The notes: a model not told the origin generated them from the sequence alone. Positions 4,972 through 29,464 are shown, counted from the first letter of the stretch. The stretch is DNA of 64,000 nt from an uncultured Candidatus Saccharibacteria bacterium (GCA_964525295.1 CAZGEO010000001.1:504662-568661), one strand, 5' to 3'. Translations and numbers: made by a program.

Positions 4972-5343
4972 CTAATTTGTAGGTAAGGTCAGCTTGAATA
5001 GCGACCCGACTCCACCGGTAAAATTGACGACACCTGTTGCAAGCCCAATAAGAAGAAAACCCACTAATGCGACAACATATCCAATAATTGCATAAAACAA
5101 AACTTGTGACGACTGCTTCACTGCCTGAGGATTATCCATTGCGAGCAAGCGCATACCGCCTGCATAAGCGATCATTATCACGAGAAGAACTAGAGCAACA
5201 GTAAACAGAAATGTATTAATTAGATTGACGCCAAGTGCCAAGACACTGGCGAGAGTTGGTGGCTCGTAAGTAGGAAAACCATTCTGCCCAGCATTCCCAA
5301 CATCTACACTAAACAAAAAATTTGCTAGTTTTGATAATGGCAT
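4972..5343 (-). CDS. T4SS pilin-like (TrbC/VirB2-family-like) small membrane protein
   Basis: 123 aa with two TM helices, in the same family as the five paralogs in this window. Confidence 0.6.
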   Translation of the reverse strand: MPLSKLANFLFSVDVGNAGQNGFPTYEPPTLASVLALGVNLINTFLFTVALVLLVIMIAYAGGMRLLAMDNPQAVKQSSQVLFYAIIGYVVALVGFLLIGLATGVVNFTGGVGSLFKLTLPTN

Positions 5344-5359
5344 CTGTATGTGTAATCAA

Positions 5360-5719
5360 TTACTGAGCTTCTGTTGGTAATGCAATTGCATCGCTATCAA
5401 CACCAAGTTGTCTCAAAATGAATGAAACTAAGAAGTATGCTGCAAATGCTACCAATAAACCTACAATTGCGTTAGTAATACTTGACATTGCAGTCTTTGC
5501 TTTTTGTGCATCACCTTGGCTGGTTACATATTGCAACCCTGCAAACATAATATAGACAACTGCTGCAATAACAACAACGATCAAAATTGTGTCAAGAATT
5601 TTCTTTACTAAATCGTTTGCATTACCGGTAACGCCAGTATCTGGAGCCCAGCTTGATGCCTGAACTGATGGAATTACGATGTCTTTAATGTACTCTATTG
5701 GGTTGATCATTTGTTGCAT
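5360..5719 (-). CDS. T4SS pilin-like small membrane protein
   Basis: 119 aa. Motif TSQGDAQKAKTAMSSITNAIVGLLVAFAAYFLV matches the GGDP/GDP-K-x-A-x-I-G-L core shared with the 11598-12602 paralogs. Confidence 0.65.
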   Translation of the reverse strand: MQQMINPIEYIKDIVIPSVQASSWAPDTGVTGNANDLVKKILDTILIVVVIAAVVYIMFAGLQYVTSQGDAQKAKTAMSSITNAIVGLLVAFAAYFLVSFILRQLGVDSDAIALPTEAQ

Positions 5720-5824
5720 AACTATGTTATTTCGCTATTTTAACAAGACTTAGCCCGCTCGTCAAATAATACCGCACAATTTTTCAGTATCGATTTGCGA
5801 CCTACGTTAATTAGAACTAAGTAA

Positions 5825-5854
5825 TTGTTAAATGGTTCGAACAGCTTGTATAAT
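5825..5854 (+). promoter_or_regulatory. Sigma70-like promoter of metG (TTGTTA -35, TGtATAAT extended -10), leaderless
   Basis: TTGTTA at 5825-5830, TG at 5847-5848, TATAAT at 5849-5854, and ATG at 5861 only 6 nt downstream. Confidence 0.5.
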
Positions 5855-5860
5855 ACTTTA

Positions 5861-7330
5861 ATGAGCAAGTTTTACATCACAACAACATTACCTTACGTTA
5901 ATGCACTGCCACATATTGGGCATACCCTCGAATTTTTGCAAGCAGATGTTATTGCTCGCTACATGCGTACTAGAGTTGGCGCTTCAGAAGTTTTCTTTAA
6001 CATAGGCACAGATGAACATGGGCAAAAAATATATACGAAAGCAATCGAAGAAGGGTTAACTCCCCAAGAATTTGTCGATAAATATGTATCAGGCTGGAAA
6101 GATTTTTGTGAGCTATATCAGATATCATATACAAACTTCTACCGTACAAGTGACCAGAGACATGTAGAGCTAGCAAAAAAGTTATGGCAGATACTCGTCG
6201 ATAAAGGGCAGATTTACAAAAAAAAATATGCAGGCCTCTATTGTGTAGGTTGCGAATCGTTCAAAATGGAGAAAGAATTGGTAGATGGCAAATGTCCCGA
6301 TCACGATAAAGCACCAATACCAATGGAAGAAGAGAACTATTTCTTAAAACTTTCAGAGCACACAGAGAAAATCCTTGATCATATCGAAAAAAACAAAGAA
6401 TTCGTAAAAAGTCCCGAGAAACAGAAACATCTCGTGAATTTTCTCAAAGAAGGATTGCAAGATATAAGCGTTTCTCGATTGAAAGAGAAGCTACCTTGGG
6501 GAATTGACATTCCAGGCGACGATAAGCAAGTAATGTATGTTTGGCTAGATGCGTTGAGTAACTATATTTTTGCAGTAGATTATCTGCAAAATGAGGAAAA
6601 TTACAAAAAATTATGGCCAGGTGTACAAATCTGTGGGCCTGACAATCTCAAATTTCAAGGCGCTATTTGGCAAGGAATCCTCGCAGCTCTTGAAGAGCCA
6701 TTTACCAAAAAGATTCTTGTACATGGGATGATCAACGATGAACATGGACGAAAAATGAGTAAAACACTCGGAAATGTAATATCTCCTTTTGAAATTCTTG
6801 AAAAATATGGGCTTAAAGCAGTTCGCTACTACCTAACAGTCGGCATTCCAACATACGATGATGCTGCATTTTCAGAAACACGCCTAGTGGATCTTTACAA
6901 TGATGGCTTGGCTGATAAATACGGTAACCTTCTAAACAGGGTAATTCACTTGGCTAATAAAAATTCCATTACGTTGGGGCTAGAAACTGAAAAAGACCCT
7001 GAAATTGTAGAAAAAGTTAATGCCACAATGAAACGCTATCATGAATTAATGGGAGAATATGAGCTATCCGAAGCTTTTCAGTGTATCTATGAACTATCAA
7101 GTTTCGGAAATGAATACATCTCTATCAAGCAACCTTGGGGAAAAGACAAATCAATTAATGAAATTACCGTAGTTCTCAATTCCCTTGCCTACATACTAGA
7201 AGCTGTAATTGCTGGATACGAACCAATATTATTGGAGACTACACAAATCGCAAAAGATGCGCTTAAATCACAATCTCCAGTAATTCTATTCGACAAAATA
7301 ACTGTTTCACCATCTGAACCAAAAGAATAA
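5861..7330 (+). CDS. metG: Methionyl-tRNA synthetase
   Basis: Class I HIGH motif PHIGH and KMSKS (KMSKTLGN) are present. The start is placed at Met13 (5861) because the track start 5825 coincides with the -35 box. Confidence 0.9.
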   Translation: MSKFYITTTLPYVNALPHIGHTLEFLQADVIARYMRTRVGASEVFFNIGTDEHGQKIYTKAIEEGLTPQEFVDKYVSGWKDFCELYQISYTNFYRTSDQRHVELAKKLWQILVDKGQIYKKKYAGLYCVGCESFKMEKELVDGKCPDHDKAPIPMEEENYFLKLSEHTEKILDHIEKNKEFVKSPEKQKHLVNFLKEGLQDISVSRLKEKLPWGIDIPGDDKQVMYVWLDALSNYIFAVDYLQNEENYKKLWPGVQICGPDNLKFQGAIWQGILAALEEPFTKKILVHGMINDEHGRKMSKTLGNVISPFEILEKYGLKAVRYYLTVGIPTYDDAAFSETRLVDLYNDGLADKYGNLLNRVIHLANKNSITLGLETEKDPEIVEKVNATMKRYHELMGEYELSEAFQCIYELSSFGNEYISIKQPWGKDKSINEITVVLNSLAYILEAVIAGYEPILLETTQIAKDALKSQSPVILFDKITVSPSEPKE

Positions 7331-7780
7331 TATCGCTCTTACTGTCAATCAGAACGATTTGAGAGATTGATTCACAGACGCAGAGATATACTGCCTGTGG
7401 AATTTTCAGAACAAAATGAGTGATGTGGACAACTTGCCCGAGAGAATATTTATGATGCGGAAAACAAGAAATTATTTTGTCTCTCTTCGAATTTGCACAT
7501 AAATCCTCACAATTTCAATAGAAAATGCGACTTCTATAAATATATACCCACAACTAACCAATTATGACTGAGTTCAATTTCCACAGAATGCGAAGAACGC
7601 GAAAAGTAATCCACGAGATATCCACACGCAAAAAACAGATAATTAATTCCAATATATCAGATGGAATTGAAACAACACCACAAATCCACACTCCCTACTA
7701 CCACTTCTATAAATATAAATAGAGTAAGAAAACAAACAGTTCTGTGATAAAATCAGAATAATAATTTATTCGGAGAAGTT
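7331..7780. other. Candidate chromosomal replication origin (oriC): AT-rich 450-bp non-coding region with about 8 DnaA-box-like TCCACA-core 9-mers, immediately upstream of dnaN
   Basis: Sites include atgtggaca (7423), atatccaca (7618), taatccacg (7608), aaatccaca (7682), tttccacag (7580), tacccacaa (7547) and ctgtggaat (7396). Gene orientation switches from minus to plus around 5.7-7.8 kb. Confidence 0.5.
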
Positions 7781-8935
7781 ATGGAGTTTAAGATCGGGGC
7801 TGAAGTCCTTTCAAGTTACGTCAATATCGTAAGTCGCGTAGTGAATGCAAAAGCAAACCTGCCTCTTCTTAATAATATCCTTATTGATGTCTCTAAAGAC
7901 ACCATCCTTCTTTCGGGTACTGACCTAGAAGTGCAAATTACTGCAGCTGCACAATTAAACACAAAAGAAGCCGGTAAAACATCTGTTAATGCAAGAATGT
8001 TTGCCCAGTATGTGAATACTATTCCAAAAAGCGAAACATTAACTATTTCTCAAGAAAAAGGATTACTGAAAGTATCTTCTGGTGTGGGCTCAGCTGAGTT
8101 TGCAACTCGTGAAGTTGAAGACTTCCCTCTCTTTGAAGATACTGAAATGCTTCAATTATTTGAGATCCCTGCAGAATCTTTTGCTACAATGGTCGACAAA
8201 ACGATTGTTGCTTGTGCTAAAAATGATATCCGCCCAATTTTGACAGGTGTTAATGTAGAAATAGATGGTGATTCAGTAACCTTCGTCGCTCTAGATACTT
8301 TTAGACTTTCAAAGATTTCGACCACGTCACAATCTAAATATGTTGGAAAAAAACAGGTTGCAATTCCAGCAGCTGCAATGGAGAATATGGTAAGAATCGT
8401 TCGCGACTCGTTTATTTCTTCTCTTGCTGACTCTCCTATTGTGTCTTGTAAACTTGCTTCTTCTGGTAATTTCGTGTTGTTGCAGTATGGTGAAGTAAAG
8501 TTGTATGCACGCTTGATAGAAGGCGAATACCCTGAATATAAAGCAGTAATTCCAGTAGCTCATCAAATGGAAGCAACTGTTAATCGTGTCGCTTGGTTGG
8601 AATCATTGAAGCGTGTTGGTGTTTTCGCTCAATCTGCAATTAACCAGAAAGTTATCTTGTCATTTGATTCAGGAAAGATTGTAATGGAATCTCAGGTGCC
8701 TGAAATTGGTAATATTCGTGAAGAATTGGAGGCGACAATTGATGGCGCGACACTTCGTGTCGCCTTCCAAATTAAGTATCTCACTGATATTTTGACACTT
8801 GTTTCTGATGAAGCTGTTATATTTAGGGCATCGATTACAGGAACTGCTCCGCAAGAATTCATCAAAGGTTCATTCTTAGAACCATCTCAGGAGACCTTCC
8901 TGCATATTTTAATGCCTCTTAAGTTAGACGAGTAA
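7781..8935 (+). CDS. dnaN: DNA polymerase III beta sliding clamp
   Basis: 384 aa with a typical DnaN N-terminus (MEFKIGAEVLSSYVNIVSRVV...LLSGTDLEVQI). An SD GGAG lies 6 nt upstream. Confidence 0.9.
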   Translation: MEFKIGAEVLSSYVNIVSRVVNAKANLPLLNNILIDVSKDTILLSGTDLEVQITAAAQLNTKEAGKTSVNARMFAQYVNTIPKSETLTISQEKGLLKVSSGVGSAEFATREVEDFPLFEDTEMLQLFEIPAESFATMVDKTIVACAKNDIRPILTGVNVEIDGDSVTFVALDTFRLSKISTTSQSKYVGKKQVAIPAAAMENMVRIVRDSFISSLADSPIVSCKLASSGNFVLLQYGEVKLYARLIEGEYPEYKAVIPVAHQMEATVNRVAWLESLKRVGVFAQSAINQKVILSFDSGKIVMESQVPEIGNIREELEATIDGATLRVAFQIKYLTDILTLVSDEAVIFRASITGTAPQEFIKGSFLEPSQETFLHILMPLKLDE

Positions 8936-9409
8936 TTGCGCATGCAATCCAAGCAGGGTGAGAACCCGCAACTAACATTGGCAGTTAAAGTTAATCCATT
9001 TCAATCGTGGTTAATTTCAACGAAAAAGGCAATTCGCCATATTAAGTATTCACCAGTTTTATTACTGATAAGAAACTTCCTTTTTTGGGTTCAACTCGGC
9101 ATAGTTTTTATGTCGTTTCTTGTGAGAATTCTTTTTGCTGAAAAATTACAGGTAAGTTTTGCAGTTTTAAATATGGCTGCGTCAACCGTTCAAGGATTTG
9201 TATCTAAATCAGTTCGTTCACTTGCGCAGGTTGATGAACTTCTTTTGCTTATTTCTGGTGTGACCGTACTGTCGTGGATCGTTGCGGTCGCCTTTTACTC
9301 TTTTGGCAAGCAAGGTATTGTTCCGTATGTTTTAGTTTCAGCAATATTAATTATTTTATTGTTGGTCAAAATAATTGTGACTCCAATCTTACTTTTAGGA
9401 ATTAACTAA
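8936..9409 (+). CDS. Hypothetical polytopic membrane protein (TTG start abutting dnaN stop)
   Basis: Hydrophobic 157-aa ORF in the operon context. Confidence 0.4.
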   Translation: MRMQSKQGENPQLTLAVKVNPFQSWLISTKKAIRHIKYSPVLLLIRNFLFWVQLGIVFMSFLVRILFAEKLQVSFAVLNMAASTVQGFVSKSVRSLAQVDELLLLISGVTVLSWIVAVAFYSFGKQGIVPYVLVSAILIILLLVKIIVTPILLLGIN

Positions 9410-9411
9410 TT

Positions 9412-10587
9412 ATGGATATTCTTACCTTTGCAATTGCCTTTGTCGTCGCTTTAGTACTGGCTTTACTAATAACGCCATGGATTGCAGTTTTGGCAAAAAA
9501 GTTTGGAGCTATGCAACTTCCACCTGCGCAGGTATTACAAAAGATTCAAGAACAGCGAGAAAGAGGATTGCTTTCTGATGCAGAATATGAAGCAAAATTG
9601 CAAGCAGCGCGAAGAAGGCTTGATAAACCACCACTAATTATGTGGGGTGGTATTGCCTATGTTGTACCCTTTTTGTTAGTTTCTGGGGTGATTTTACTCA
9701 CCTCAAAGGTTATTAATTTACCTGTTCCCGAGTTTACCAATTATCTACTTTGGTTTGCGACGATAGGGGTACTCTTTGTTATGGGGATTTTAGATGATGT
9801 TTTTGAATTTCCCGGAAAAGTTCAATTGATTTTTCACCTCCTTGCAACGTTACTTTTTGTACTTTCACCGATAGATTTTGATGGTTTTAGAAATCCACTA
9901 TCAAATACTTTTGTGAATCTTGATTGGTGGCATTTGGTTGCTGGCTCTTTTCCTTGGCAAATAAGTCTAGTATTCCCTGGTGATTTCGTTTTGTTCTTTT
10001 GGATTTGGCCGATGATTATGGCTCTCAAGATGCAAGCAGGTAGCGATGGCCTTATGGAAGGTAATGTCGCAATCGGTGCATTTATGCTCTTTTTGGTAAG
10101 TTTCTTTTACGGGCAACCAGCCTCGGCTCTTTTCTCAATTACCTTATCAGGGGCAATGTTAGGATTTTTGTATTTCAATTTTTACCCAACTAAGATTCTT
10201 TCAGGCTCAGCAGGTAAAAGTGTGGTAGGTTTCATATTGGCAGGATTGTCAGTAATTAGTAACTCAAAATTCGCAATCAGTCTTGTTATTTTTGCACTTC
10301 CGTTGTTTGATATGTTTTGGGTATATTTACGAAGAATTCTTTACTATCGTCCACGTTCAATTAAACAACTTTTATTGATTAGTGACAGATTCCATTTTCA
10401 CCATAGTTTAATGAAGTTAGGATTTTCTGAAACAAAAATAGCATTGATTGAGTATGGTATTACCCTGGGGCTTGGTCTTTTAGCAGTATTTGCGCCACCA
10501 CAATTCAAACCAATGATTATCATTGGCTCCTGGGGTTTTGTTGCCAGTTTAATAATTTTTGTCACCAGTAAAGCTAATGCCGTCTAA
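9412..10587 (+). CDS. Glycosyltransferase family 4 polyprenyl-phosphate sugar-1-phosphate transferase (MraY/WecA-like)
   Basis: About 10 TM helices and a GILDDVFEF aspartate-rich motif. A SHOCT-like EYEAKLQAARRRL motif follows TM1. Confidence 0.7.
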   Translation: MDILTFAIAFVVALVLALLITPWIAVLAKKFGAMQLPPAQVLQKIQEQRERGLLSDAEYEAKLQAARRRLDKPPLIMWGGIAYVVPFLLVSGVILLTSKVINLPVPEFTNYLLWFATIGVLFVMGILDDVFEFPGKVQLIFHLLATLLFVLSPIDFDGFRNPLSNTFVNLDWWHLVAGSFPWQISLVFPGDFVLFFWIWPMIMALKMQAGSDGLMEGNVAIGAFMLFLVSFFYGQPASALFSITLSGAMLGFLYFNFYPTKILSGSAGKSVVGFILAGLSVISNSKFAISLVIFALPLFDMFWVYLRRILYYRPRSIKQLLLISDRFHFHHSLMKLGFSETKIALIEYGITLGLGLLAVFAPPQFKPMIIIGSWGFVASLIIFVTSKANAV

Positions 10588-11566
10588 TATTGATGCGAAA
10601 GATTTTGTTGCAAATTATGAACTAAATGACTATCGTTATAGTGCTTTTTGGGTCGGTCGTGAATATGAACATGAATCTGAGGTTTTACTTCTCAATCGAT
10701 TAATTGCGCAATACTTACCCGATCTCAAAGAACGTAGAATTATTGACCTCGGAGGTGCTTATGGTCGTTTAGCCCCAATTTACTCACACGCAAAAGAAAT
10801 AGTTTTAGCAGATTACTCTACCGGTGAATTGAAAGATGGTCAAAAAAGACTTCAAAAAGTGTCGTATGCTAGTAAATTGAAATATGTTGCGCTTAATGCA
10901 TATCGCCTTCCATTTGCAGAAAACAGTATTGATGCGTTGTTAAGTGTTCGAGTAATGCATCACTTGAAAGACGCGAATATATTCCTACAACAACTAGCTA
11001 CTGCCCTAGTTCCAGGCGGAGTTGCAATAATTGAATTCGCACATAAAAATCACCTACTTTCGTTATTAAAAAATCTTTTTAGAGGAAAATTGCGAAGCTT
11101 TTTATCGCAACAGATACTTGAAGTGAATCATCGTGCAGATTCGCAAGGAGTTGCAACAGAGAAAGGACAGATTTCGATTATGTACAACTTCTCTTTTGAG
11201 TATTTTCGTGACAATGCAATTAAATCAGGTCTTCGCGTCGAAGGGGTTTACCCTTGCTCGTTTTTACGTTTAGGATTTTTGAAGAAGAGATTTAAGGTTG
11301 CAACACTATTAAAATTCGAAAATTTTTTACAGAGATTCCTCTCTTTTCTTCGGGTTACTCCAAGTCTGTTCATTGTGTTAAGTAAGAATGGTAGATTCGA
11401 ACCTAGCTCGTTATCTCTTGAGGAAACTTTGCAATGTCCCACGTGCTCTACTCAGGTTAAATCAGCGAAAGAGTCACTAAAATGCGTTAATGGTCATGAT
11501 TTTCCTCAGTCACAAAAAGATATAATCGATTTGCGTGATCCTCGCCCTGAAGAAGTCAACTTTTGA
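10577..11566 (+). CDS. Class I SAM-dependent methyltransferase with C-terminal zinc-ribbon
   Basis: Motif I IIDLGGAYGRL, LVPGGVAIIEF, and a C-terminal CPTCST...CVNGHDF. The alternative start 10559 overlaps the upstream gene. Confidence 0.7.
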   Translation: MPSNIDAKDFVANYELNDYRYSAFWVGREYEHESEVLLLNRLIAQYLPDLKERRIIDLGGAYGRLAPIYSHAKEIVLADYSTGELKDGQKRLQKVSYASKLKYVALNAYRLPFAENSIDALLSVRVMHHLKDANIFLQQLATALVPGGVAIIEFAHKNHLLSLLKNLFRGKLRSFLSQQILEVNHRADSQGVATEKGQISIMYNFSFEYFRDNAIKSGLRVEGVYPCSFLRLGFLKKRFKVATLLKFENFLQRFLSFLRVTPSLFIVLSKNGRFEPSSLSLEETLQCPTCSTQVKSAKESLKCVNGHDFPQSQKDIIDLRDPRPEEVNF

Positions 11567-11597
11567 ATCTCTTTGGGTATCCTGATATAATTCACCA

Positions 11598-11933
11598 ATG
11601 ACACCGTTTTTGGGGCAAATAACAACTTTACCATTCAGTGCGCAAACGATGCCTATTATTGATGGTGTTCTTGATTTATCTACTGAACCAGGAGCTTTTG
11701 TCACTTGGGGGCTTGCTGCTGGTGTCGGTCTTGGTAGTGGTATCGCCCTGATTCTAGTTACCCTTGGCGCATACAAAATTCTTACTAGTGGTGGAGATCC
11801 GTCAAAAGTAAAAGATGGCAAAGATCAAATACAAAATGCCATTATTGGGTTACTTCTCATTATTCTATCTTTTGCGATTGTTAGCACAATATTTAACCTT
11901 TTAGGGTTAGGCTCAATAATTAAATTTGGTTAA
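11598..11933 (+). CDS. T4SS pilin-like small membrane protein
   Basis: SGGDPSKVKDGKDQIQNAIIGLLLIILSFAIV core with two TM helices. Confidence 0.65.
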   Translation: MTPFLGQITTLPFSAQTMPIIDGVLDLSTEPGAFVTWGLAAGVGLGSGIALILVTLGAYKILTSGGDPSKVKDGKDQIQNAIIGLLLIILSFAIVSTIFNLLGLGSIIKFG

Positions 11934-11939
11934 AGAACA

Positions 11940-12248
11940 ATGAACGGATTTCTTGCGACCTCATATACAATTAAACCTCCTCCAGGAGTTCCTACTTCGA
12001 TTACGGTGTGGGGCGTTACAAATAATGCATTAACGGCGATATTAGCTCTCGCTGCTGTTGGCGTTGTAATCACATTTGTTTATGCAGGAATTTCATTCAT
12101 TATGAGTCATTCTGACCCTGGTAAGATTAAGGGAGCTCAAGCAATGATGACTAATGCAGCAATTGGATTTGTAATTATCGTCGCTGCATTCTTTATTCTG
12201 CAATTAATCAACTTCGCCATTACTGGTCAAACTATTGGCGGTATTTAA
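11940..12248 (+). CDS. T4SS pilin-like small membrane protein
   Basis: SHSDPGKIKGAQAMMTNAAIGFVIIVAAFFIL core, tandem paralog. Confidence 0.65.
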   Translation: MNGFLATSYTIKPPPGVPTSITVWGVTNNALTAILALAAVGVVITFVYAGISFIMSHSDPGKIKGAQAMMTNAAIGFVIIVAAFFILQLINFAITGQTIGGI

Positions 12249-12254
12249 TCTTTC

Positions 12255-12602
12255 ATGAAAACAATGATGCTATCAATTTTTCAAAAAGCCTTTGCTTTTG
12301 GGGTAAATGTTATCGGAAATCCTTCTGTGCCTTCAGGGTATATTAAATCTAATGAAGGGGCCGAAAGAATTAGTTCCGCTCTAAGCGTCATATTTGTATT
12401 AACTGCCATTACGGCCGTATTTACTATTATGTGGGCAGGTTTTGCCTATATAACGAGTACAGGTGATCCAGGTAAGATTAAGCAGGCAATGAGTACCCTG
12501 CAATGGGCTGTTGTAGGTTTGATCATCTCAGGTCTAGGTTATCTCATCGTTTCTATTATTGCCGGAATCATGGGAATCAATAGTCTTGAATTGCCGTTCT
12601 AG
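12255..12602 (+). CDS. T4SS pilin-like small membrane protein
   Basis: STGDPGKIKQAMSTLQWAVVGLIISGLGYLIV core, tandem paralog. Confidence 0.65.
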   Translation: MKTMMLSIFQKAFAFGVNVIGNPSVPSGYIKSNEGAERISSALSVIFVLTAITAVFTIMWAGFAYITSTGDPGKIKQAMSTLQWAVVGLIISGLGYLIVSIIAGIMGINSLELPF

Positions 12603-12676
12603 TTACTAATTACAATCTATCCAATCAATTTCTCTTTGTTTGAGCTTTTTTTTGGGGAAGATTGTGATCAGACACT

Positions 12677-12705
12677 TTGTTCAAAGTAAAAATTTAAGGT
12701 ATAAT
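12677..12705 (+). promoter_or_regulatory. Sigma70-like promoter TTGTTC-17-TATAAT upstream of the DUF4870 gene
   Basis: Exact 17-nt spacer. TATAAT lies at 12700-12705, 28 nt before the ATG at 12734. Confidence 0.5.
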
Positions 12706-12733
12706 GCACCATTAAGTTAAACTGTTCACTCAC

Positions 12734-13105
12734 ATGGCAGAAGTCGTCGAAACAAAGCCAGTTGCAACCGAATCAGCAGCATCAACTGTTGATAGCAACG
12801 CAAAATTAATGGCAGCAATTGCATGGTTCTTTGCACCAATTGCATCTGTCGTATTCATCGTTCTTGATAACTACAAGAAAGATAAATATGTTCAATTCCA
12901 TGCTTGGCAATCATTAGCATTCGGTATTGCAAACATCGTTGTTTCATTCGTTTTAGGTTGGACTTGTATTCTTCCACTTGCAATGTTTGTTGTTGCAATC
13001 GTTGGAATTATCAAGGCATTCCAAGGTGAAATGTGGAAGCTTCCAGTTATTGGTGACTGGGCAGAACAACAGGCAAATAGCACTGTTGCAAGCGCAAGCA
13101 AATAG
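12734..13105 (+). CDS. DUF4870-family small membrane protein
   Basis: Motif YVQFHAWQSLAFGI with two or three TM helices. Confidence 0.65.
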   Translation: MAEVVETKPVATESAASTVDSNAKLMAAIAWFFAPIASVVFIVLDNYKKDKYVQFHAWQSLAFGIANIVVSFVLGWTCILPLAMFVVAIVGIIKAFQGEMWKLPVIGDWAEQQANSTVASASK

Positions 13106-13139: not shown

Positions 13140-14756
13140 TTATTGTTGGTTGCGCTGCGTAGCAGCGCAACTTTCTATGGAGAGGTGGCCGAGTGGCTGA
13201 AGGCACCTCACTGCTAACGAGGCAAGGATGAAAATCCTTCCCGGGTTCGAATCCCGGCCTCTCCGCCAGTTGTTTGTTATTCGGACTTCCCGAATCTTTA
13301 TTAGTTGAGCAACCACAGGGTTGTATTCAACTCGCACAATTTGTTTATTATCAACGTAAATTCCTTCAAAAAACATTCTCAAATACTTTCTTTTTAGTGT
13401 TGCATCGGCTTTTATATAGCTTGAGAAGATATTTTCAGATAATGACAGTATGCTATCGAGAATCTTTACTTTGTCGGTATGGTCATTCTGAATACTCGCC
13501 AAATCACTCATAGCAACGGATAGCTCATCTTTTAACCTCATATAAATATCCGTAAATTCATCGCTAGATACAATCCTATCCATTCTGTCATCTTCGGCGT
13601 TTTTCATGCGTGTTTTAATCTTCGCAATCCTGTTCTTAATGATTTTTTCTTCTTCTGATTCAGTTTCTCGTACTTCTGCAAGGATTGATTTTGCGGTTTT
13701 AATAACATCTTTCTTAAAGTCTTCCGTAAACTCAATCTTCTTGAATTCTTCGGATACTAACTGCTCTAGTACTTCCATACGGACATAGTTTTTTGAGCAG
13801 TTTTTGCTCTTTTTTCTGCTTTTGCATCCAAAGTAAAAGAATTCCTGTTGTTTTCCGTTTAGGTATTTCTTGATTTTCTGCTCTCCAACAAGTCTTGAAC
13901 CACAGTTACAATAAACATGACCTCTAAGCATGAAATTATGCGTTCTATCACGAGTTCCTTTCACCTTGCGAATATCGAGTAATTGCTGAACAGTATCAAA
14001 TAACTGCTTTGTTATGATTGGTTCATGCTTTCCTTTGTGTAGTTCGCCTTTCCAGTCAAAATCTCCATAATAAATGGGGTTTCTTAACATTCGTGATACT
14101 GCACTTCTTGATATTGGTTTACTCTCTGTTGAAAGCATACCTTTCTTTTGGAGTGTTTCCGTTAAAGAGGTTATAGAATGATCACCACTTGCAAAGAGCT
14201 GAAAGGCGTATAAAACGAGTTTTGCTACATCGGGTACTGGTCTTATATATCTTTTGTGTTTCTCTCCATAATTTTCATATCCGATGGGTGCAAATGTTGG
14301 CCACCAACCATTCTTTATCTTTTGAGAAACACCTTTTTTGACTTCAAAACCGAGATTAGCAGAATAAAACTGTGCTTGAGCCGACATTATTCCCATTAAG
14401 AATTGGTCTGCTGGGTTATCATCGTTGAAATTCTCCGATACTGACATGAGTTTTACTTTTTTGTCATTGAGAATCTTCTTGATAGTCCAAAAATCAGCCA
14501 TATCACGAGATAACCTATCAGACTTATGGATAATAAGTCCATCTACTTCATGTTCTGATATAAAAGAGATCATTTCAAGAAGTGCAGGTCTATCTGCTGT
14601 TCGTGCTGATTTCCCTGCATCTTCAAATTCTTTTACGACTACATATCCGTTAGCTTTCGCAAATTCGTTACATTTTTCACGCTGAAAAGGTAGCGATAAA
14701 TCATGCTTTGCCTGTTCATCTGTGGATACTCTCGTGTATATGACTGCTGTTTTCAT
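13140..14756 (-). CDS. Large serine recombinase (resolvase/invertase N-domain + recombinase domain + zinc-ribbon); the frame continues antisense across the whole tRNA-Ser gene
   Basis: N-terminal YTRVSTDEQ with the catalytic Ser, and DRLSRD. Cys pairs lie in the C-terminal region. The last ~43 codons are the reverse complement of the tRNA. Confidence 0.8.
   Translation of the reverse strand: MKTAVIYTRVSTDEQAKHDLSLPFQREKCNEFAKANGYVVVKEFEDAGKSARTADRPALLEMISFISEHEVDGLIIHKSDRLSRDMADFWTIKKILNDKKVKLMSVSENFNDDNPADQFLMGIMSAQAQFYSANLGFEVKKGVSQKIKNGWWPTFAPIGYENYGEKHKRYIRPVPDVAKLVLYAFQLFASGDHSITSLTETLQKKGMLSTESKPISRSAVSRMLRNPIYYGDFDWKGELHKGKHEPIITKQLFDTVQQLLDIRKVKGTRDRTHNFMLRGHVYCNCGSRLVGEQKIKKYLNGKQQEFFYFGCKSRKKSKNCSKNYVRMEVLEQLVSEEFKKIEFTEDFKKDVIKTAKSILAEVRETESEEEKIIKNRIAKIKTRMKNAEDDRMDRIVSSDEFTDIYMRLKDELSVAMSDLASIQNDHTDKVKILDSILSLSENIFSSYIKADATLKRKYLRMFFEGIYVDNKQIVRVEYNPVVAQLIKIREVRITNNWRRGRDSNPGRIFILASLAVRCLQPLGHLSIESCAATQRNQQ
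13150..13176 (+). terminator. Perfect 9-bp inverted repeat TTGCGCTGC-gta-GCAGCGCAA followed by CTTTCT; possible intrinsic terminator between the DUF4870 gene and tRNA-Ser
   Basis: The palindrome is read directly in the sequence. The U tract is weak, and the hairpin also lies inside the 3' tail of the recombinase reading frame. Confidence 0.35.
13179..13268 (+). tRNA. tRNA-Ser (anticodon GCU) with long variable arm and encoded CCA
   Basis: Acceptor GGAGAGG/CCTCTCC, anticodon loop CUGCUAA (U33, GCU, A37), variable-arm hairpin AAGGATGAAAATCCTT, T-arm CCGGGTTCGAATCCCGG, discriminator G + CCA. Confidence 0.85.
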
Positions 14757-14913
14757 TTTAGGCTTTATTAGGTTTCAATTTAGCTTTTCGCATAGCTTTC
14801 ATTTCCCTTATCATGGCGTAGTAATAATCCTTTTGTGCGTTCACAAAATTTTGGATAAATAAATCGACTGGTTTTAATTTCTTTTTCATATTGTATTAGT
14901 GTTAATAAATAAA

Positions 14914-15023
14914 AAAGGGCGACTCGTTGGACACAACTCTGTATCACAGAATTGTACGAATCGCCCTTTACATCATTTAAACCTAAATGACTAAGGTCTG
15001 TGATACGATTAAGTTGTGTCCAG
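14914..15023. repeat. Two interleaved imperfect inverted repeats upstream of the recombinase gene: AAAGGGCGA/TCGCCCTTT and TTGGACACAAC..GTATCACAGA/TCTGTGATAC..GTTGTGTCCAG
   Basis: Read directly in the sequence. Candidate recombinase-binding or att-like or operator site. The 85-aa track ORF 14780..15037 here is probably spurious. Confidence 0.5.
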
Positions 15024-16001
15024 TTATATCTTACCATAGTTTTGTTTTTCTGTTAATTTTTCTACCTCCTTTTTTATAAAATTAAGTAAATTGAAGTTTT
15101 CGGCGTTCATATTGAGAAATTCTGTACTAAATCCGTTTTGCTCAAAGGTCGCATAATCAATAAAAAGAAATCTATCCTTTTGCAAAAAGTCATCTACAAC
15201 ATAATCAGACATACTGCGAATATCATCTGCCATTGTTACCCCCTTTAAAACAACATTTTTGAAGTTCATACTAGCATGACTCCAACTCCACTGACCTGTA
15301 TATTCAGGCTCAAATACAACAAGGTTTTTAAGCCTTTCTCTTGTGCTTTCGGTGATAAACAGGATATTCGGGTAAGTGTTTACTTTTTGTTGTTTGAGTT
15401 GATCAAAATATTCAAAGTATTTCATGTACTTAACCGCAACATCTTTTGAATACTCTGTTCCTCTGTCGTATTCAATCCAAAATGAAAAGACAATGTTTTC
15501 TATTTGAATTTCAACTTCTGCATCAGGCATTACATATCTTTTGATAATCCTGCCCGATGATGTGTTGCGAAACTGATATTCATACCTTGTAAAATGGTCA
15601 CCTGTAAACTTTCTTAATATTAGGTTGTGTTTTTGGCACTCCCGAAGCAAAAGCAAATACAAATTAGCGACTTTTACTGTATGCTCTAAAGCAAAGAAAT
15701 TCACACCAGTTAGCCTTTCAGGACAATTAATAGAATCCTCACTCACACCTGTACCAGTAGCCAGTTGTTTTGCCCCAAGTCGTGATAAAAATATGATTTT
15801 GGCATTGTTGGTATAGTAGGTCGTTCTAATTAATCCATGCTCCCTTAATCTGTTTACTGTTCTACTAACTGCTTGATAACTTCCGTATAACTTCTTCTCC
15901 AATAAAATCTTAGTCAAAACTTGAAGCGGTAAAAATCTAAAACTATTAACTATCCCTAATATCTGAATATCATTGTACTTTGCAATATAACTTTCTTTCA
16001 T
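15024..16001 (-). CDS. Replication-relaxation family protein (plasmid-type, wHTH N-terminus)
   Basis: N-terminal wHTH (LTKILLEKKLYGSYQAVSRTVNRLREHGLIRT) and a PDAEVEI...FWIEYDRGTE motif typical of the Replication-relaxation family. Confidence 0.55.
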   Translation of the reverse strand: MKESYIAKYNDIQILGIVNSFRFLPLQVLTKILLEKKLYGSYQAVSRTVNRLREHGLIRTTYYTNNAKIIFLSRLGAKQLATGTGVSEDSINCPERLTGVNFFALEHTVKVANLYLLLLRECQKHNLILRKFTGDHFTRYEYQFRNTSSGRIIKRYVMPDAEVEIQIENIVFSFWIEYDRGTEYSKDVAVKYMKYFEYFDQLKQQKVNTYPNILFITESTRERLKNLVVFEPEYTGQWSWSHASMNFKNVVLKGVTMADDIRSMSDYVVDDFLQKDRFLFIDYATFEQNGFSTEFLNMNAENFNLLNFIKKEVEKLTEKQNYGKI

Positions 16002-16033
16002 AATAAAAATAACTAAAAAATTAAATAAAAAAG

Positions 16034-16196
16034 TAAGGTCTGTCGATCACACACTTTTCACAGAACTTAATGTGTAACACACACACATTAATCGTTGTCG
16101 AGGGAGTGATTGGGTGGAAGGCATTAGGAAACGCAGTTTCGCCTTCCACCCAATCAGTCACGAGGTTCTGTAAAAGTGCGACAGACCGTAACTTTC
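16034..16196. repeat. Nested inverted-repeat (cruciform-capable) region: outer arms GGTCTGTCG..CACTTTTCACAGAAC / GTTCTGTAAAAGTGCGACAGACC, palindrome TTAATGTGT-aacac-ACACATTAA, inner perfect 13-bp IR TTGGGTGGAAGGC / GCCTTCCACCCAA
   Basis: Read directly in the sequence. It is located just downstream of the Rep-like gene inside the element. Candidate element origin, oriT or a structured RNA. Confidence 0.55.
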
Positions 16197-16286
16197 GTGT
16201 TTGACAACATGGTGAGAAACTGGATTCATAGAAACGCCCTTTTCGGTAGGATACATTCAACATTTAATCAATCATGGTTTTCATAG

Positions 16287-17075
16287 TTAAAATTTAGATT
16301 TTTCTAAGAATTTAGCTCTCATTGTTTCAAGTTTTGACAGTTGCTCTTTGCGTTTTCGTTTCTCCTGTAAATCTTTGAGAGTTTTAACAAACAACCCTGC
16401 TGGGTTTGAGAGTGGTTTTGTTCCATCAACTTGAGCAGTGCGAATTTGAGTTCTTGTGAAAATTAAAGCATCTGTAACATCATCGGAATTAACAATTCCT
16501 TTGTTCTTTTGGCTGATTAGCTTTTGGTAGTATTTAATGCTTTTAAGGTAGTTTAGCTCTTTAGCGATTTCTACTGCTTCTTCTGAAAAAGATTTAAAAT
16601 CATCGTTTAACGTTAACTTATTATTTTTAATCTTTTCTTCTTCAACTTTATATTCTTTGTAGGTCAAATTTGACTCACCTTGATGTGTCAATTCTGAAAC
16701 ATCTGGTTGTTGCAATTCTGACACATCCGCAAGACTATCGAGTTTTTCAGCATATATTTCTGATATTGGCTCAAGAATATACAAGTTTGTTTTATTAAGT
16801 CCTCTTGTTTTCCAAGACATAAGCCCACGACTTCTAAGCTCATCTAATCCTCTAAATATTGAACTTCTACTTTTACCGATTGTTTCTGCTAGTTTATTTT
16901 GTCCTGGAAAACAATAATTTTTGTTCATAGCGTATTTGAGAAGTGCCAAATATACTCTAACTGCAAGATCTGAAAGCAATCTATCTTCTGTTATTAAATG
17001 ACTAATTTGAGCAAATCCGTATTGCTTTTCAAAATCTCGAAATATTACTTTGTCTTGCTTATCGGTCATTTTCAT
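16287..17075 (-). CDS. HTH-domain replication-initiator-like protein (DnaD/replisome-organizer-like N-terminus)
   Basis: The N-terminal VYLALLKYAMNKN...NKLAETIGKSRSSIFRGLDELRSRGLM resembles Rep/DnaD-type wHTH. The C-terminus is charged. Confidence 0.45.
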   Translation of the reverse strand: MKMTDKQDKVIFRDFEKQYGFAQISHLITEDRLLSDLAVRVYLALLKYAMNKNYCFPGQNKLAETIGKSRSSIFRGLDELRSRGLMSWKTRGLNKTNLYILEPISEIYAEKLDSLADVSELQQPDVSELTHQGESNLTYKEYKVEEEKIKNNKLTLNDDFKSFSEEAVEIAKELNYLKSIKYYQKLISQKNKGIVNSDDVTDALIFTRTQIRTAQVDGTKPLSNPAGLFVKTLKDLQEKRKRKEQLSKLETMRAKFLEKSKF

Positions 17076-17254
17076 GTACTTTTCGTTTTTGTAAATAACT
17101 TGCTTTTTCGAAGTAGCTCAATTGCTGATTTAGACTTCTCCTGCTTTCCAATTAATCGGCTATAACCTAATTGTTCAAAACAAAGCAAAACCCATTCACG
17201 AATGAATAGTTCTCTTGCGGTCATAGGTTTTGTTTTTTGTTTCTCTTTTGCCAT
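17072..17254 (-). CDS. Small basic hypothetical protein (60 aa), translationally coupled (ATGA overlap) to the downstream Rep-like gene
   Basis: 4-nt start/stop overlap with 16287..17075. Confidence 0.4.
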   Translation of the reverse strand: MAKEKQKTKPMTARELFIREWVLLCFEQLGYSRLIGKQEKSKSAIELLRKSKLFTKTKST

Positions 17255-17257
17255 TTT

Positions 17258-17335
17258 TAAAACAAAAAAAGAGGTCTAAATCAAAAAGGCTGTAAGCGTT
17301 ACGCTTAACAAATGACCTTTAAGACTTAGACCTCT
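17258..17335 (-). terminator. Intrinsic terminator: 10-bp perfect stem AGAGGTCTAA/TTAGACCTCT (with inner GCGTAACGC hairpin) followed on the minus strand by U7-rich tract
   Basis: Plus-strand aacaaaaaaagaggtctaa...ttagacctct, downstream of gene 17384..17599. Confidence 0.5.
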
Positions 17336-17383
17336 CTACAACTCAACTAAGGGTAGCTGAGGGCTAATATCTAAATTATTTAC

Positions 17384-17599
17384 TTATTGTTTCGTTTTTC
17401 TTTTACCTGTTTTTATATGTAATATCGTGCTATCAATTCTTTTGTTTGATATTTTAATTTCGTAAGTTCCAAATTCAAATTTTACGAATTCTTCAATGAT
17501 TTTCTTGAGATCTTCCAAGTGGATATTATAGATTTCAGGGCTTTGTAATAGCTCAAGAAATTGTTTTTTGAGTTCAAGTGATATTTTAGATTGTGTCAT
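17384..17599 (-). CDS. Hypothetical small protein (71 aa)
   Basis: 14-nt overlap with the upstream ORF and the same orientation as the element genes. Confidence 0.4.
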   Translation of the reverse strand: MTQSKISLELKKQFLELLQSPEIYNIHLEDLKKIIEEFVKFEFGTYEIKISNKRIDSTILHIKTGKRKTKQ

Positions 17600-18365
17600 A
17601 TGAGATATTTTTGTCTAATAAATCTAAATAATCCGTACTATCGCTATCTGTTTTCATAGCGTAATTCTTGTAAATCATTAACGGCTCTAAATACTCAATA
17701 CTTGATACTCCATCAACTATTGAAACTCGTTTAAAACCCTCTTGTTTGAGGTACTCGTTATCAGTACGAAGTACTGAAAAGATATTTGCTTCTTGAGTTG
17801 TTAAGTTCTTTTTAGGGATTAAAACAACATAGAATGGGTCAAGTTTTGAGTGGTAATAGTCAAATATTGTAAGTTTCCAACATGGAATTGAGACTTTTTG
17901 AGTGTATACAGTCATTTCTTCAATAACTGGGAGGGCTACAAACAGCTTTTTATTAAGTCTGAGGTTGTATAGGACTCTTTCTTCCATTGGAGTATTTTCA
18001 ACTGGTTTTGGTGGCAATTGGCTTGAAAAATAGTTATATACATGGATTCGTATTTCATCATGTTTATATCCTCGTTTAAATAATTGGTGAATGTACCATA
18101 TCATCATTGGTACTTTAATTTTGTGATAGCCTACTGTACCACCAAGAGCAGAGGTTAAGCCCATTTTCTTTGCAGAGGGAAGAAAGCTATGTCGGGAGTA
18201 GTAAATGAGTTTCTTTCTATCACATTCAATGTTCCAAGAGCTTTTTATGATTAAATCGACAACTGTATCTGAGGATAGATCGTATCTATTTGTTGTATCG
18301 GAGACTAAACCCCATTCATACATTTGTTTTACGAAGTTACTAATTGTTTTATCTAAGATATTCAT
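17586..18365 (-). CDS. Hypothetical protein (259 aa), element-encoded
   Basis: Long ORF with no recognisable motif. Confidence 0.5.
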   Translation of the reverse strand: MNILDKTISNFVKQMYEWGLVSDTTNRYDLSSDTVVDLIIKSSWNIECDRKKLIYYSRHSFLPSAKKMGLTSALGGTVGYHKIKVPMMIWYIHQLFKRGYKHDEIRIHVYNYFSSQLPPKPVENTPMEERVLYNLRLNKKLFVALPVIEEMTVYTQKVSIPCWKLTIFDYYHSKLDPFYVVLIPKKNLTTQEANIFSVLRTDNEYLKQEGFKRVSIVDGVSSIEYLEPLMIYKNYAMKTDSDSTDYLDLLDKNISYDTI

Positions 18366-18580
18366 AGTATCGAGTTAAATATATCAATGTTTGTCACTAT
18401 ACTAATATATACCACTCAAAATAGTTTGTCAATAAATTTGCTATGTTTTACACTCAAGCTCAAAACTAAGAAACTAAGTATAAATTTAAAGCTTCGCTTT
18501 CTTATTATAATGTCGTTTCAGGTAAAATTGGGTAATGTATAAGCCGATTTAATACGGGAATAATTAATTATTAAAACAAA

Positions 18581-19657
18581 ATGAATGAAGCTGTAAATAA
18601 GTATCTTGAGGAAGTACAAAGCAAGTTTAAAACTGGACACGCTAGAGAACACGCCTATCACCCAGCGTTACAAAAACTTATTGAAGATATTAATAGCTCA
18701 ATCAATGCGGTAAATGACCCAAAACAACAAAAGGTCGGTGCTCCTGATTTTGTTTTACTAAAAAGTAAAACACCTATCGGCTATGTAGAAGCAAAAGACA
18801 TAGATATTGCACTTGATAAAGAATTTAAAACAAAGAATCAATTTAACAGATATAAAGCCTCACTCAATAACTTGTGTTTTACGAATTATCTCGACTTTCA
18901 CTTTTACCTAAATGGTGAAGAAGTAGCAAAAGTTGCTATCGGAAAACTGGAAAATAACAAAATCGAAGTTTTACCAGATAATATTCCACTGCTTGAAAGC
19001 TTACTCAAGAATTTTACAACACAGAAATCTATTTCTATCAGAAGCCCGAAAGAACTTGCTTCTCTTATGGCTGAAAAAGCAAAGATGCTTAAGAATGTTG
19101 TTTATTTGTCATTAAAAGAAGAATCAGAAGTTAAAGGACAAGTTGAACAACAATACCAAGTGTTTAAGCAAATGCTTATTCATGACTTATCACTTGAACA
19201 ATACGCTGATTTATACGCTCAGACTGTTGCTTACGGAATGTTTGCGACTAGATACTACGACCCTTCTTTGGAGAACTTTAATAGAGGTGAAGCAAACAAG
19301 CTTTTGCCAAAGTCAAACCTTTTTTTGCAGAACTTCTTGAAAACTATGGAAAAGATACAAAACGAAGTGATGTCATTGTTCCTTTTACGAAACTTTCTTG
19401 GCAGAATATGACCCTAAAATGCGTAAATCAAGAGGTGTTTACTATACTCCTGAACCAGTAGTTGATTTTATCGTAAGGGCTGTTGATGACATTTTGAAAA
19501 CCTAGTTTGGAATTACTGACGAATTAGCAGATATAAGCAAGATTGAAGTTGAAAAAGAGTTACAGGGTAATAAGAAGAAGCAGAAAGTAACGGAACACAG
19601 TATTCAAGTTCTTGATCCTGCGACTGGGACAGGTATATTCCGAAATCTTGCCACCCT
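18581..19657 (+). pseudogene. N-terminal remnant (~330 aa equivalent) of a Type IIG restriction-modification / BREX PglX-like N6-adenine DNA methyltransferase; frameshift near 19395-19411, in-frame TAG at 19507-19509, truncated right after motif I
   Basis: ORF 18581..19411, then in the +1 frame YDPKMRKSRGVYYTPEPVVDFIVRAV, then TAG, then ...HSIQVLDPATGTGIF (motif I). This runs in frame into the RibB-like/E1-alpha gene, and no catalytic NPPY/DPPY region follows. Confidence 0.6.
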
Positions 19658-19682
19658 ATCTGTGTTGAGTTATACTTATGTT

Positions 19683-28333: not shown

Positions 28334-28552
28334 TCTAATTCCATTGTTATTTAAGAAGGGTAAGTTACTACGCCTGTTTATCAACAACTCGGTACGTCTG
28401 TGAAACTGTTGTGGCGCAATCTTTGTTTGGAATATGTTATCCACTCCCGTGAAATAGCCGTGGAATGTATTCAAGCAGCGAAATATTGATAACTCAGTAA
28501 AAAAATCTCAACATAAGTGAGAAGAGAGATATGAATAGGAAGGAGGCTTACT

Positions 28553-29464
28553 CTACCCTTTTGAAGCAATGCTCTCTACAGCGATAGCAGCTTCAGCAGC
28601 AGCGGTAACAAGTTGAGCGAATTTGTTTGAAGCGGTGGTACTGTCGCCGGCTGCAAGTATTCCGGGTACTGAAGTTCGTTGCTCTTTATCGACAATTATG
28701 AAACCGTGGTCGTCGAGTTGTATCCCGAGGTCGGTAGTCAGTTCAGTTATTGGTTCGTGGCCAATTTCAATAAATACACCTTGAATTGATAATTCAGTGA
28801 TAGTGCCAGAAAGAATAAGTTTTTCTACAACTTGATTGCCCGTAATTTCTTGTATTTGCGTGCTGAAATGAACTTTGATGTTACTCTTTTCTTCAAGCTT
28901 TTTTATCCAATAAGGTTCGGCTCGCAGTTTGTCGCTTCTCACTAGTAAATGGACAGTTGTGCAAAGTTCAGATAAAAATAAGGCTGCAGTTACCGCGGAA
29001 TCACCGCCACCGACTACCGCAACTTCTTTTCCTTTGAAGAATGCGCCGTCGCAGGTAGCACAGTAAGTGACGCCTTTTCCGTAAAATTCTGCCTCTCCTG
29101 TAACATGTAGCTTTTTTCGTTTCATGCCGATTGTTAAGAGAATATTCTTCGCTTTGATTTGTTCGTTTTGCTCGGTTGTAAGGGTGAATGGATATTTTTC
29201 TTCGGAATTTTTCTCAATCTTTGCAACTTTACTGTAAATTTCTTCAACACCTAGTTTGATAGTCTGTTGTTGTACTTTTTGCATGAGTTCCATGCCGGTA
29301 ATTTCCTCGAAACCAGGATAATTCCCTATTATGTGTGCTTCTGCTGTTTGTCCGCCAAAATTATCGCCGAAAATTACAGTTTTCAAACCGTAACGGGCAG
29401 CATAAATTGCACCAGTATATCCAGCAAATCCCATGCCAACAATTGCAAGATCATAATTTTTCAT
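28553..29464 (-). CDS. trxB: Thioredoxin-disulfide reductase
   Basis: FAD site YDLAIVGMGFAGYTGAIYAA, redox CATCDG, NADPH site VAVVGGGDSA. The start was moved to MKNYDL (29464); the track start 29680 adds 72 non-conserved residues. Confidence 0.85.
   Translation of the reverse strand: MKNYDLAIVGMGFAGYTGAIYAARYGLKTVIFGDNFGGQTAEAHIIGNYPGFEEITGMELMQKVQQQTIKLGVEEIYSKVAKIEKNSEEKYPFTLTTEQNEQIKAKNILLTIGMKRKKLHVTGEAEFYGKGVTYCATCDGAFFKGKEVAVVGGGDSAVTAALFLSELCTTVHLLVRSDKLRAEPYWIKKLEEKSNIKVHFSTQIQEITGNQVVEKLILSGTITELSIQGVFIEIGHEPITELTTDLGIQLDDHGFIIVDKEQRTSVPGILAAGDSTTASNKFAQLVTAAAEAAIAVESIASKG

Follow-up and report, generated by a model that had tools for sequence, protein, structure and literature searches.

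In most bacteria the site directly upstream of dnaN, the gene for the beta sliding clamp, belongs to dnaA. In the 64-kb stretch of DNA analysed here (the window) that site is filled by metG, which encodes methionyl-tRNA synthetase (MetRS), and the intergenic spacer between metG and dnaN contains a cluster of sequences resembling DnaA boxes. We asked whether this spacer is the chromosomal origin of replication (oriC) of the organism, as a model had proposed from the DNA alone and without database searches (the sequence-only reading), and where its dnaA gene might lie.

The spacer and its genomic context

The earlier description of a 450-bp AT-rich spacer, bounded by metG and dnaN and missing its dnaA, was borne out. 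The spacer (7331-7780) has a GC content of 34.0%, compared with approximately 37-39% in its flanks; Pfam matches established the identity of the gene on each side (Table 1), and no DnaA homologue was found across the window. The true start of metG is probably the ATG at 5861, 12 codons downstream of the start of the ORF. Within the spacer there were only short, unconserved ORFs and no terminators, and a generic promoter scan reported nothing. It also matched zero Rfam families, and a riboswitch or other noncoding RNA was rejected as a reading of the spacer.

The neighbouring proteins place the window taxonomically. Homologues of its DnaN at 51-70% identity are either named Candidatus Dojkabacteria (WS6, Patescibacteria/CPR) or lie on Dojkabacteria records, and the protein is about equally distant, at roughly 29% identity, from every lineage outside this clade. 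We also compared MetRS proteins (loci L008-L012, L091 and L171-L173). The closest relatives encode, in the same place, a MetRS of approximately 555 aa that shares only approximately 25% identity with that of the window; for the approximately 481-aa MetRS of a larger Dojkabacteria group the figure is 50-69%. This looks like an in-place swap for a different type of MetRS beside the candidate origin.

Genes diverge from the neighbourhood of the spacer, as they do at an oriC. All genes are on the minus strand from -4.7 kb (on a contig that extends the window to the left) to 5719, and all are on the plus strand from 5825 to 13105. The sequence-only reading had put the switch from minus to plus at the spacer itself, which is incorrect: the gene to its left, metG, already has the plus orientation, and the switch occurs in the 105-bp gap (5720-5824) between a type IV secretion system (T4SS) pilin gene and metG, 1.6 kb to the left of the spacer. 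In one relative (L091) the switch coincides with the spacer.

T4SS pilin genes (PF18895) are found on both sides of the candidate origin, at 4972-5719 and at 11598-12602, and a gene for a T4SS coupling protein (VirD4-like) is present on contig L001, about 4 kb to the left of the window. T4SS genes of CPR bacteria have been reported to cluster near the origin (10.1101/2025.01.22.634366), and the positions of the PF18895 and VirD4-like genes here fit that report.

Strand composition was examined over approximately 69 kb of the source genome and over ±10 kb in relatives. Top-strand GC skew was -0.08 to -0.11 on the left side of the spacer (up to 5.7 kb) and +0.06 to +0.11 on its right. Minus-strand genes taken by themselves show the same change of sign in the top strand, from -0.074 to the left (n=4) to +0.063 to the right (n=11); coding strand is therefore not the whole explanation. 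In 6/7 relatives, the cumulative skew minimum was within 250 bp of the dnaN start. The raw cumulative minimum of the window is at 17.7 kb, which counts against an origin in the spacer; we attribute this dip to an integrated element of low GC content (13.1-19.4 kb). When the element was removed from the calculation, the minimum was at 5929, on a flat floor extending from 5.3 to 8.3 kb. Since this minimum and the switch in gene orientation lie 1.4-1.6 kb to the left of the spacer, metG would be head-on to the leftward fork, a further point against an origin in the spacer. No parS site was found near the candidate origin.

The element itself is a probable integrated mobile element (13140-19411, GC 32-35%) beside the gene for tRNA-Ser(GCT) at 13179-13268. 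An ORF for a large serine recombinase (13140-14756, minus strand) reads through the tRNA-Ser gene on the opposite strand, and the element additionally encodes Replic_Relax, HTH_36 and HSDR_N-like proteins. The relative L004/L012 has no such element at this position, and no convincing att-type direct repeats were identified for it.

Two other genes of the window have unusual domain compositions. A 1135-aa protein resembling isoleucyl-tRNA synthetase (40098-43505, minus strand) has a NUDIX domain inserted at residues 224-336. A 535-aa ORF (19662-21269, plus strand) combines an N-terminal DHBP-synthase domain with a dehydrogenase E1 (TPP) domain, an unusual fusion, and is followed by a transketolase-pyrimidine-binding gene.

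DnaA boxes and a predicted unwinding module

The sequence-only reading had counted about eight nine-mers with the TCCACA core in the spacer, three of them matching the DnaA box at 8/9 positions. The cluster is real, yet it was overstated, and the observation was confirmed in part. Only five cores are exact, and a count of eight is obtained only when two mismatches are allowed; likewise the sites at 8/9 number two and not three, TTGTCCACA at 7424-7432 (minus strand) and ATATCCACA at 7618-7626 (plus strand). The exact cores are at 7396 and 7424 on the minus strand and at 7580, 7621 and 7685 on the plus strand. With 24 such cores in the whole 64 kb, 0.17 would be expected per 450 bp, and 2/2000 block shuffles placed five in any 450 bp. 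The eight nine-mers with at most two mismatches to the consensus TTATCCACA are the maximum for the window (mean 1.64, sd 1.24, z about 5), and this number was matched somewhere in the 64 kb by 31/200 shuffles. Because that count alone is not significant against shuffled sequence, it is the exact cores and the conservation that carry the case. A non-coding cluster of DnaA boxes, as looked for in an oriC, is present in the form of five exact cores and eight sites at 7/9 or better, including the two at 8/9. No perfect DnaA box was found anywhere in the window, which counts against an oriC.

Farther to the right, at 28378-28694, three DnaA boxes with one mismatch each (TTATCAACA, TTATCCACT and TTATCGACA) are present on the plus strand, in or beside a 219-bp gap between a gene for a WecG-type glycosyltransferase and a pyridine-nucleotide-disulphide oxidoreductase gene. 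Judged by these motifs, the region may be a secondary DnaA-binding site.

Table 1. Features of the metG-dnaN spacer and its two flanking genes, in window coordinates
Feature	Position	Strand	Support or remarks
metG (methionyl-tRNA synthetase)	5825..7330	+	Pfam tRNA-synt_1g, 1.9e-93
Candidate oriC, entire metG-dnaN spacer	7331..7780	.	34% GC, box cluster, skew
DnaA-box-like TGATTCACA, 2 mismatches	7368..7376	+	L008 and L009 keep a TTTCACA core in the corresponding place
DnaA-box-like AATTCCACA, 3 mismatches, exact TCCACA core	7396..7404	-	11-nt inverted repeat with 7576-7586
DnaA box TTGTCCACA, 8/9	7424..7432	-	L008-L011 have a perfect TTATCCACA here, same strand
DnaA box TTTTCCGCA, 7/9	7456..7464	-	32 bp from the 7424-7432 box; 33-bp-spaced pair in L008 and L010
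Direct repeat ACTTCTATAAATATA, exact, 15 nt	7530..7544 and 7703-7717	+	Copies 173 bp apart
DnaA-box-like ATACCCACA, 7/9	7544..7552	+	Mismatch scan
DnaA-box-like ATTTCCACA, 7/9, exact core	7577..7585	+	Core and mismatch scans
DnaA box TAATCCACG, 7/9, first of a same-strand pair, 11-bp offset	7607..7615	+	Aligns with TTATCAACA-type boxes in relatives
DnaA box ATATCCACA, 8/9	7618..7626	+	Aligns with boxes of relatives
Degenerate upstream module box AACACCACA, 4 mismatches	7674..7682	+	One-base overlap with the next box, like B. subtilis boxes 6/7
Trio-proximal module box AAATCCACA, 7/9	7682..7690	+	Scan and relatives' profile
GC-rich 4-bp spacer CTCC, box to trios	7691..7694	+	GGCC in B. subtilis; CTCC in Kerfeldbacteria L072
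DnaA-trios CTA CTA CCA CTT CTA	7695..7709	+	Bottom strand 3'-GAT GAT GGT GAA GAT-5'; third trio non-canonical
AT-rich candidate DNA-unwinding element	7707..7736	.	Least stable duplex of the spacer, nearest-neighbour scan
Extended -10 TGATAAAAT, candidate dnaN promoter	7745..7753	+	TG-N-TA(A/G)AAT kept in 6/6 aligned spacers
dnaN (beta sliding clamp)	7781..8935	+	3/3 DNA_pol3_beta Pfam domains

At the end of the spacer, positions 7674-7721 read AACACCACA-AATCCACA-CTCC-CTA CTA CCA CTT CTA-TAAATATAAATA. A strict scan for this architecture of boxes, spacer and DnaA-trios yielded one occurrence in the 64 kb. The dnaA-dnaN spacer of Bacillus subtilis (incC) reportedly contains a basal unwinding system (BUS) that consists of boxes 6 and 7, a GC cluster, DnaA-trios and an AT-rich region (Richardson 2016; Pelliciari 2021, PMC8287927). 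The experimentally defined B. subtilis scaffold reads TTATCCACA-AATCCACA-GGCC-CTA CTA TTA CTT CTA CTA (PMC8287927 supplement). Like its B. subtilis counterpart, the module of the window is located immediately upstream of dnaN and points towards it; it has two same-strand boxes that overlap by one base (9 + 8 bp), a GC-rich 4-bp spacer, trios of the form CTA CTA xxA CTT CTA in the same phase, and then an AT-rich stretch. It is unlike the B. subtilis system in that metG rather than dnaA lies upstream, the upstream box has four mismatches, the third trio is without the conserved middle base, and the clade of the window has no known second box cluster upstream of dnaA; the function of the module here is also a prediction from sequence. 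The module is homologous to the B. subtilis BUS and would be expected to work alike.

An AT-rich unwinding element adjoining the boxes is a further feature of an oriC, and the candidate at 7707-7736 directly follows the trios. Its instability ranks in the top 0.02% of the window for 20-mers and 0.16% for 30-mers, with an overall range of 0.02-0.4%.

Published rules for calling a BUS (PMC8287927, Pelliciari 2021) specify a box with at most two mismatches, a tandem second box with at most four, a distance of 0-16 bp from the first box located to the trios, with about 4 bp of GC-rich gap, and at least three consecutive middle-adenine trios, (.A.){3,}, on the trio strand. The boxes of the window conform to these rules, with two mismatches in AAATCCACA and four in AACACCACA, 8 bp upstream, as does the 4-bp spacer CTCC. 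The trios do not: when offsets 0-16 were examined by hand, no frame had three in a row. Because the third trio is CCA, the array fails by the single base at 7702; this shortfall and the four mismatches of the upstream box both count against an oriC. Among relatives there are 3-7 trios in a row in L007, L008, L010, L011 and L012, and at least three by eye in L014 and L091, but not in L009 or L013 (4-bp-spacer frame). On account of this base, we regard the element of the window as a BUS homologue with a degenerate trio array, and not as a rule-passing BUS. Homology is indicated by its near-identity to the B. subtilis scaffold and by the match to a profile built from relatives that is described below.

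Two other features lie within or next to the module. The extended -10 sequence TGATAAAAT, to which the generic promoter scan assigned no promoter, is probably an element of the dnaN promoter, as suggested by its conservation. The direct repeat ACTTCTATAAATATA has a second copy that overlaps the trios and the unwinding element and a first copy that directly precedes the box-like ATACCCACA and gives a weak match to the profile; the repeat is absent from relatives.

Conservation of the module and the whereabouts of dnaA

To place the spacer in an evolutionary context we took advantage of the dnaN neighbourhoods of the clade, which comprised nine GTDB species and further contigs, with DnaN proteins 44-70% identical to that of the window. 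A metagenome scan with a DnaN alignment added three more clade loci only, and none of these had dnaA. The spacers upstream of dnaN in relatives are 450-800 bp long and barely alignable save for the module, the extended -10 (TG-N-TAAAAT) and the start codon. In the spacers of related Dojkabacteria the module is the only strongly conserved block, with 24/56 invariant alignment columns in 7679-7721. Relatives have perfect TTATCCACA boxes where those of the window are imperfect, the minus-strand pair is kept at a spacing of 32-33 bp, and some loci carry 5-7 consecutive trios; both boxes and trios of the window are more degenerate than those of its relatives.

A sequence-only profile of the module was built from ten relatives, with the window excluded. 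Searched against the 64-kb window, it gave one match, at 7678-7727 (33.6 bits, E about 2e-9), and the next independent match had an E value of 0.4 or worse. Over 1.17 Mb of loci from outside the Dojkabacteria there were 10 matches, all just upstream of dnaN and nine of them in the orientation of dnaN. These matches come from WWE3, Kerfeldbacteria and Omnitrophota, and wherever a DnaA homologue could be placed, it is encoded directly upstream of dnaN, so that the matches fall in the dnaA-dnaN spacer. The same arrangement, with dnaA directly upstream of dnaN, was seen in approximately 60 non-Dojkabacteria loci fetched with the DnaN alignment.

The larger Dojkabacteria group provides a particularly close comparison. 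One of its loci (L173, JGI Ga0172382_10001821, 4997-10483), which was reached from a MetRS match, encodes a canonical DnaA in the order rpmH-rnpA-yidD-yidC-jag | dnaA, then a 493-bp spacer, then dnaN. The profile matches this dnaA-dnaN spacer at 24.1 bits. The boxes of the L173 module are of the TTATACACA type, not TTATCCACA. The window shares with L173, and with loci from WWE3 (L049) and Kerfeldbacteria (L072), a homologous module at the same distance upstream of dnaN that is detected by the same profile; it differs from L173 in that its clade is without rpmH-rnpA-yidD-yidC-jag | dnaA directly upstream. Because the profile finds dnaA-dnaN spacers elsewhere, we consider the spacer of the window to be a homologue of the ancestral dnaA-[oriC]-dnaN origin.

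The gap upstream of dnaN is short in two clade lineages that are more distant. In one (L087) a box cluster is found just downstream of dnaN and a small ORF, at 11565-11829, and not upstream; in the other (L090) the cluster is 6.7 kb from dnaN, at 17701-17951, and coincides with the local minimum of the skew. Going by these two lineages, the origin seems to have changed its place relative to dnaN on more than one occasion.

We searched for dnaA by TBLASTN in the window and the clade loci, with E. coli DnaA, four CPR DnaA proteins and the DnaA of the larger Dojkabacteria group as queries. There was no dnaA from -4.7 to +56 kb around the spacer, a range covered by the window and a 98.8%-identical Logan contig that reaches 4.7 kb further left; at the right edge only a 5-kb contig was available, adding nothing beyond the window. 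Nor was there a dnaA within ±10 kb of dnaN in any clade relative, or near more distant DnaN homologues. TBLASTN searches for rpmH, rnpA, yidC and jag, as neighbours of dnaA, found none of them near clade dnaN genes. Proximity to dnaA and/or dnaN, another feature of an oriC, is provided here by the adjoining dnaN.

Complete or near-complete records from two groups offer one clue to the whereabouts of dnaA. The position of dnaN and the candidate origin is at 53% of CP129470.1 (L009), 51% of BOKM01000001.1 (L010) and 43% of CP129477.1 (L012). Such positions would be expected if the records had been rotated to start at dnaA, and would be unlikely with random starts. We tentatively suggest that dnaA in this clade might lie roughly opposite the origin, near the terminus, although we consider this doubtful. 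That the clade has no dnaA whatsoever would be a more extreme version and is much less likely. We found no papers on the CP129470 or CP129477 genomes or on BroJett019. If dnaA does lie opposite the origin, its dosage would be lowest when the dosage of the origin is highest, and tools that rely on dnaA to locate the origin would be off by half a chromosome.

Origins separated from dnaA are known in other bacteria. In E. coli, some 40 kb separate dnaA from oriC, which is flanked by gidA and mioC. The candidate origin resembles the E. coli oriC in being apart from dnaA, in having left and right groups of boxes in opposite orientation, and in having an AT-rich unwinding element. Unlike the candidate, the E. 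coli origin is not beside dnaN, and it uses 13-mer repeats, IHF and GATC/SeqA control, none of which were seen here; its BUS score is weak (PMC8287927). A closer likeness is to Synechococcus elongatus PCC 7942, whose oriC adjoins dnaN while dnaA is encoded separately, according to the account of Watanabe 2012 given in PMC7198777. That account also puts the S. elongatus origin at a shift point of GC skew, and the two have in common an origin beside dnaN with dnaA unlinked. The BUS table lists AAAAGGTGT AAAAGGTGT CGGG GATGATGATGAC on the complementary strand for S. elongatus (PMC8287927); there, as in the module of the window, boxes in tandem are followed by a GC spacer of 4 bp and by trios of the CTA type. 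The differences are that S. elongatus belongs to another phylum, that its box variant is TTTTCCACA, and that the cyanobacterial origin was mapped experimentally, whereas that of the window is predicted.

A probable origin that stayed with dnaN

We believe that the metG-dnaN spacer is very probably the chromosomal oriC of this Dojkabacteria bacterium, or at least the part of it in which DnaA assembles and unwinding takes place. The proposal of a candidate oriC upstream of dnaN, with dnaA missing from its usual place, is supported by the module, by its homology to dnaA-dnaN spacers, by the local change in the sign of the skew, by the diverging genes, and by the lack of a dnaA in the surroundings searched. 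From these observations we would predict that DnaA binds the spacer, that the DNA is unwound there, and that the organism uses it as its sole origin.

By analogy with B. subtilis, the arrangement of the elements suggests how such an origin could operate. DnaA would bind about ten boxes, those of a left group on the minus strand (7396-7464) and those of a right group on the plus strand (7544-7690). From AACACCACA/AAATCCACA, DnaA-ATP would oligomerise over CTCC onto the bottom-strand trios, 3'-GAT GAT GGT GAA GAT-5'. One strand would be stretched, so that the adjoining AT-rich region at 7707-7736 could open for loading of the helicase, and the putative dnaN promoter, with its extended -10 at 7745-7753, would lie just past the unwinding element. 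The likely starting point is an ancestral dnaA-[oriC]-dnaN origin from which dnaA, together with the rpmH-rnpA-yidC-jag cluster, would have split off; after this separation, metG or pilin genes would have come to lie upstream of dnaN, where they are now found.

Other explanations would account for a box cluster beside dnaN in different ways. The spacer could belong to a bipartite origin of the kind found in B. subtilis and Helicobacter pylori and make up one of its halves, the partner cluster having stayed with the distant dnaA or been lost. Box-like sites do occur upstream of dnaA as well in many of the dnaA-dnaN loci that we scanned, consistent with such an ancestral layout, and the spacer of the window corresponds to the dnaN-proximal half; yet its two oppositely oriented box groups and its module would suffice for a self-contained origin (compare S. 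elongatus), and we regard a bipartite origin as unlikely. The halves of the B. subtilis origin cooperate by looping, which a large separation would prevent, and a far-off partner could not cooperate with the spacer in this manner. We give somewhat less credence still to the spacer being a DnaA-dependent regulatory or titration site (control of the dnaN promoter, or a datA/DARS-like site) that was left behind when dnaA moved, with replication starting beside dnaA. DnaA boxes upstream of dnaN can control transcription, and a conserved extended -10 lies about 50 bp past the boxes; in addition, neither dnaA nor a box cluster accompanying it turned up in the loci searched, and the boxes and trios of the window are more degenerate than those of its relatives. 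A regulatory site would not need the succession of boxes, spacer, trios and AT-rich DNA, however, and this is the best conserved part of the spacer. It also would not account for the skew sign change and diverging genes at the locus, in the window and in 6/7 relatives. Since the L090 cluster is away from the dnaN promoter and yet at the skew minimum, a purely promoter-regulatory role is further argued against.

Two more explanations have a negligible probability in our estimation, and we rejected both. That TCCACA-like words came together in an AT-rich spacer by chance and have no function would be compatible with the shuffles that reached eight sites of at most two mismatches per 450 bp somewhere in the 64 kb (31/200), but hardly with the rarity of five exact cores (2/2000 shuffles), and it is contradicted by the conservation data: the position, strand and spacing of boxes are kept across relatives, and the profile that excludes the window still recovers its module with an E value of about 2e-9. 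The presence of a plasmid-like integrated element 5.4 kb to the right (13.1-19.4 kb, with serine recombinase, Replic_Relax and HTH_36) could mean that the spacer is the origin of that element and not of the chromosome. This is contradicted by synteny, as relatives without the element also have the spacer with its module, L004/L012 has the same gene order with pilin genes leading straight to dnaG, and the element is set apart from the spacer by chromosomal genes.

With the spacer read as the chromosomal origin, an oriC located beside dnaN while dnaA is elsewhere has a cyanobacterial precedent, and hence this is not a new kind of system. What the analysis provides for an uncultured class of CPR is an origin predicted at the level of sequence, in which the boxes, the unwinding module and the unwinding element are placed. 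It also reveals that a Bacillus-type unwinding module is present nearly letter for letter in Patescibacteria and remains with dnaN after dnaA departs. In this clade, dnaA would be a misleading stand-in for the origin when genomes are rotated, when replication-rate indices are calculated, and when genes such as those of the T4SS are said to be "near the origin" (10.1101/2025.01.22.634366). Better landmarks of the origin for the clade would be dnaN together with the box-trio module.
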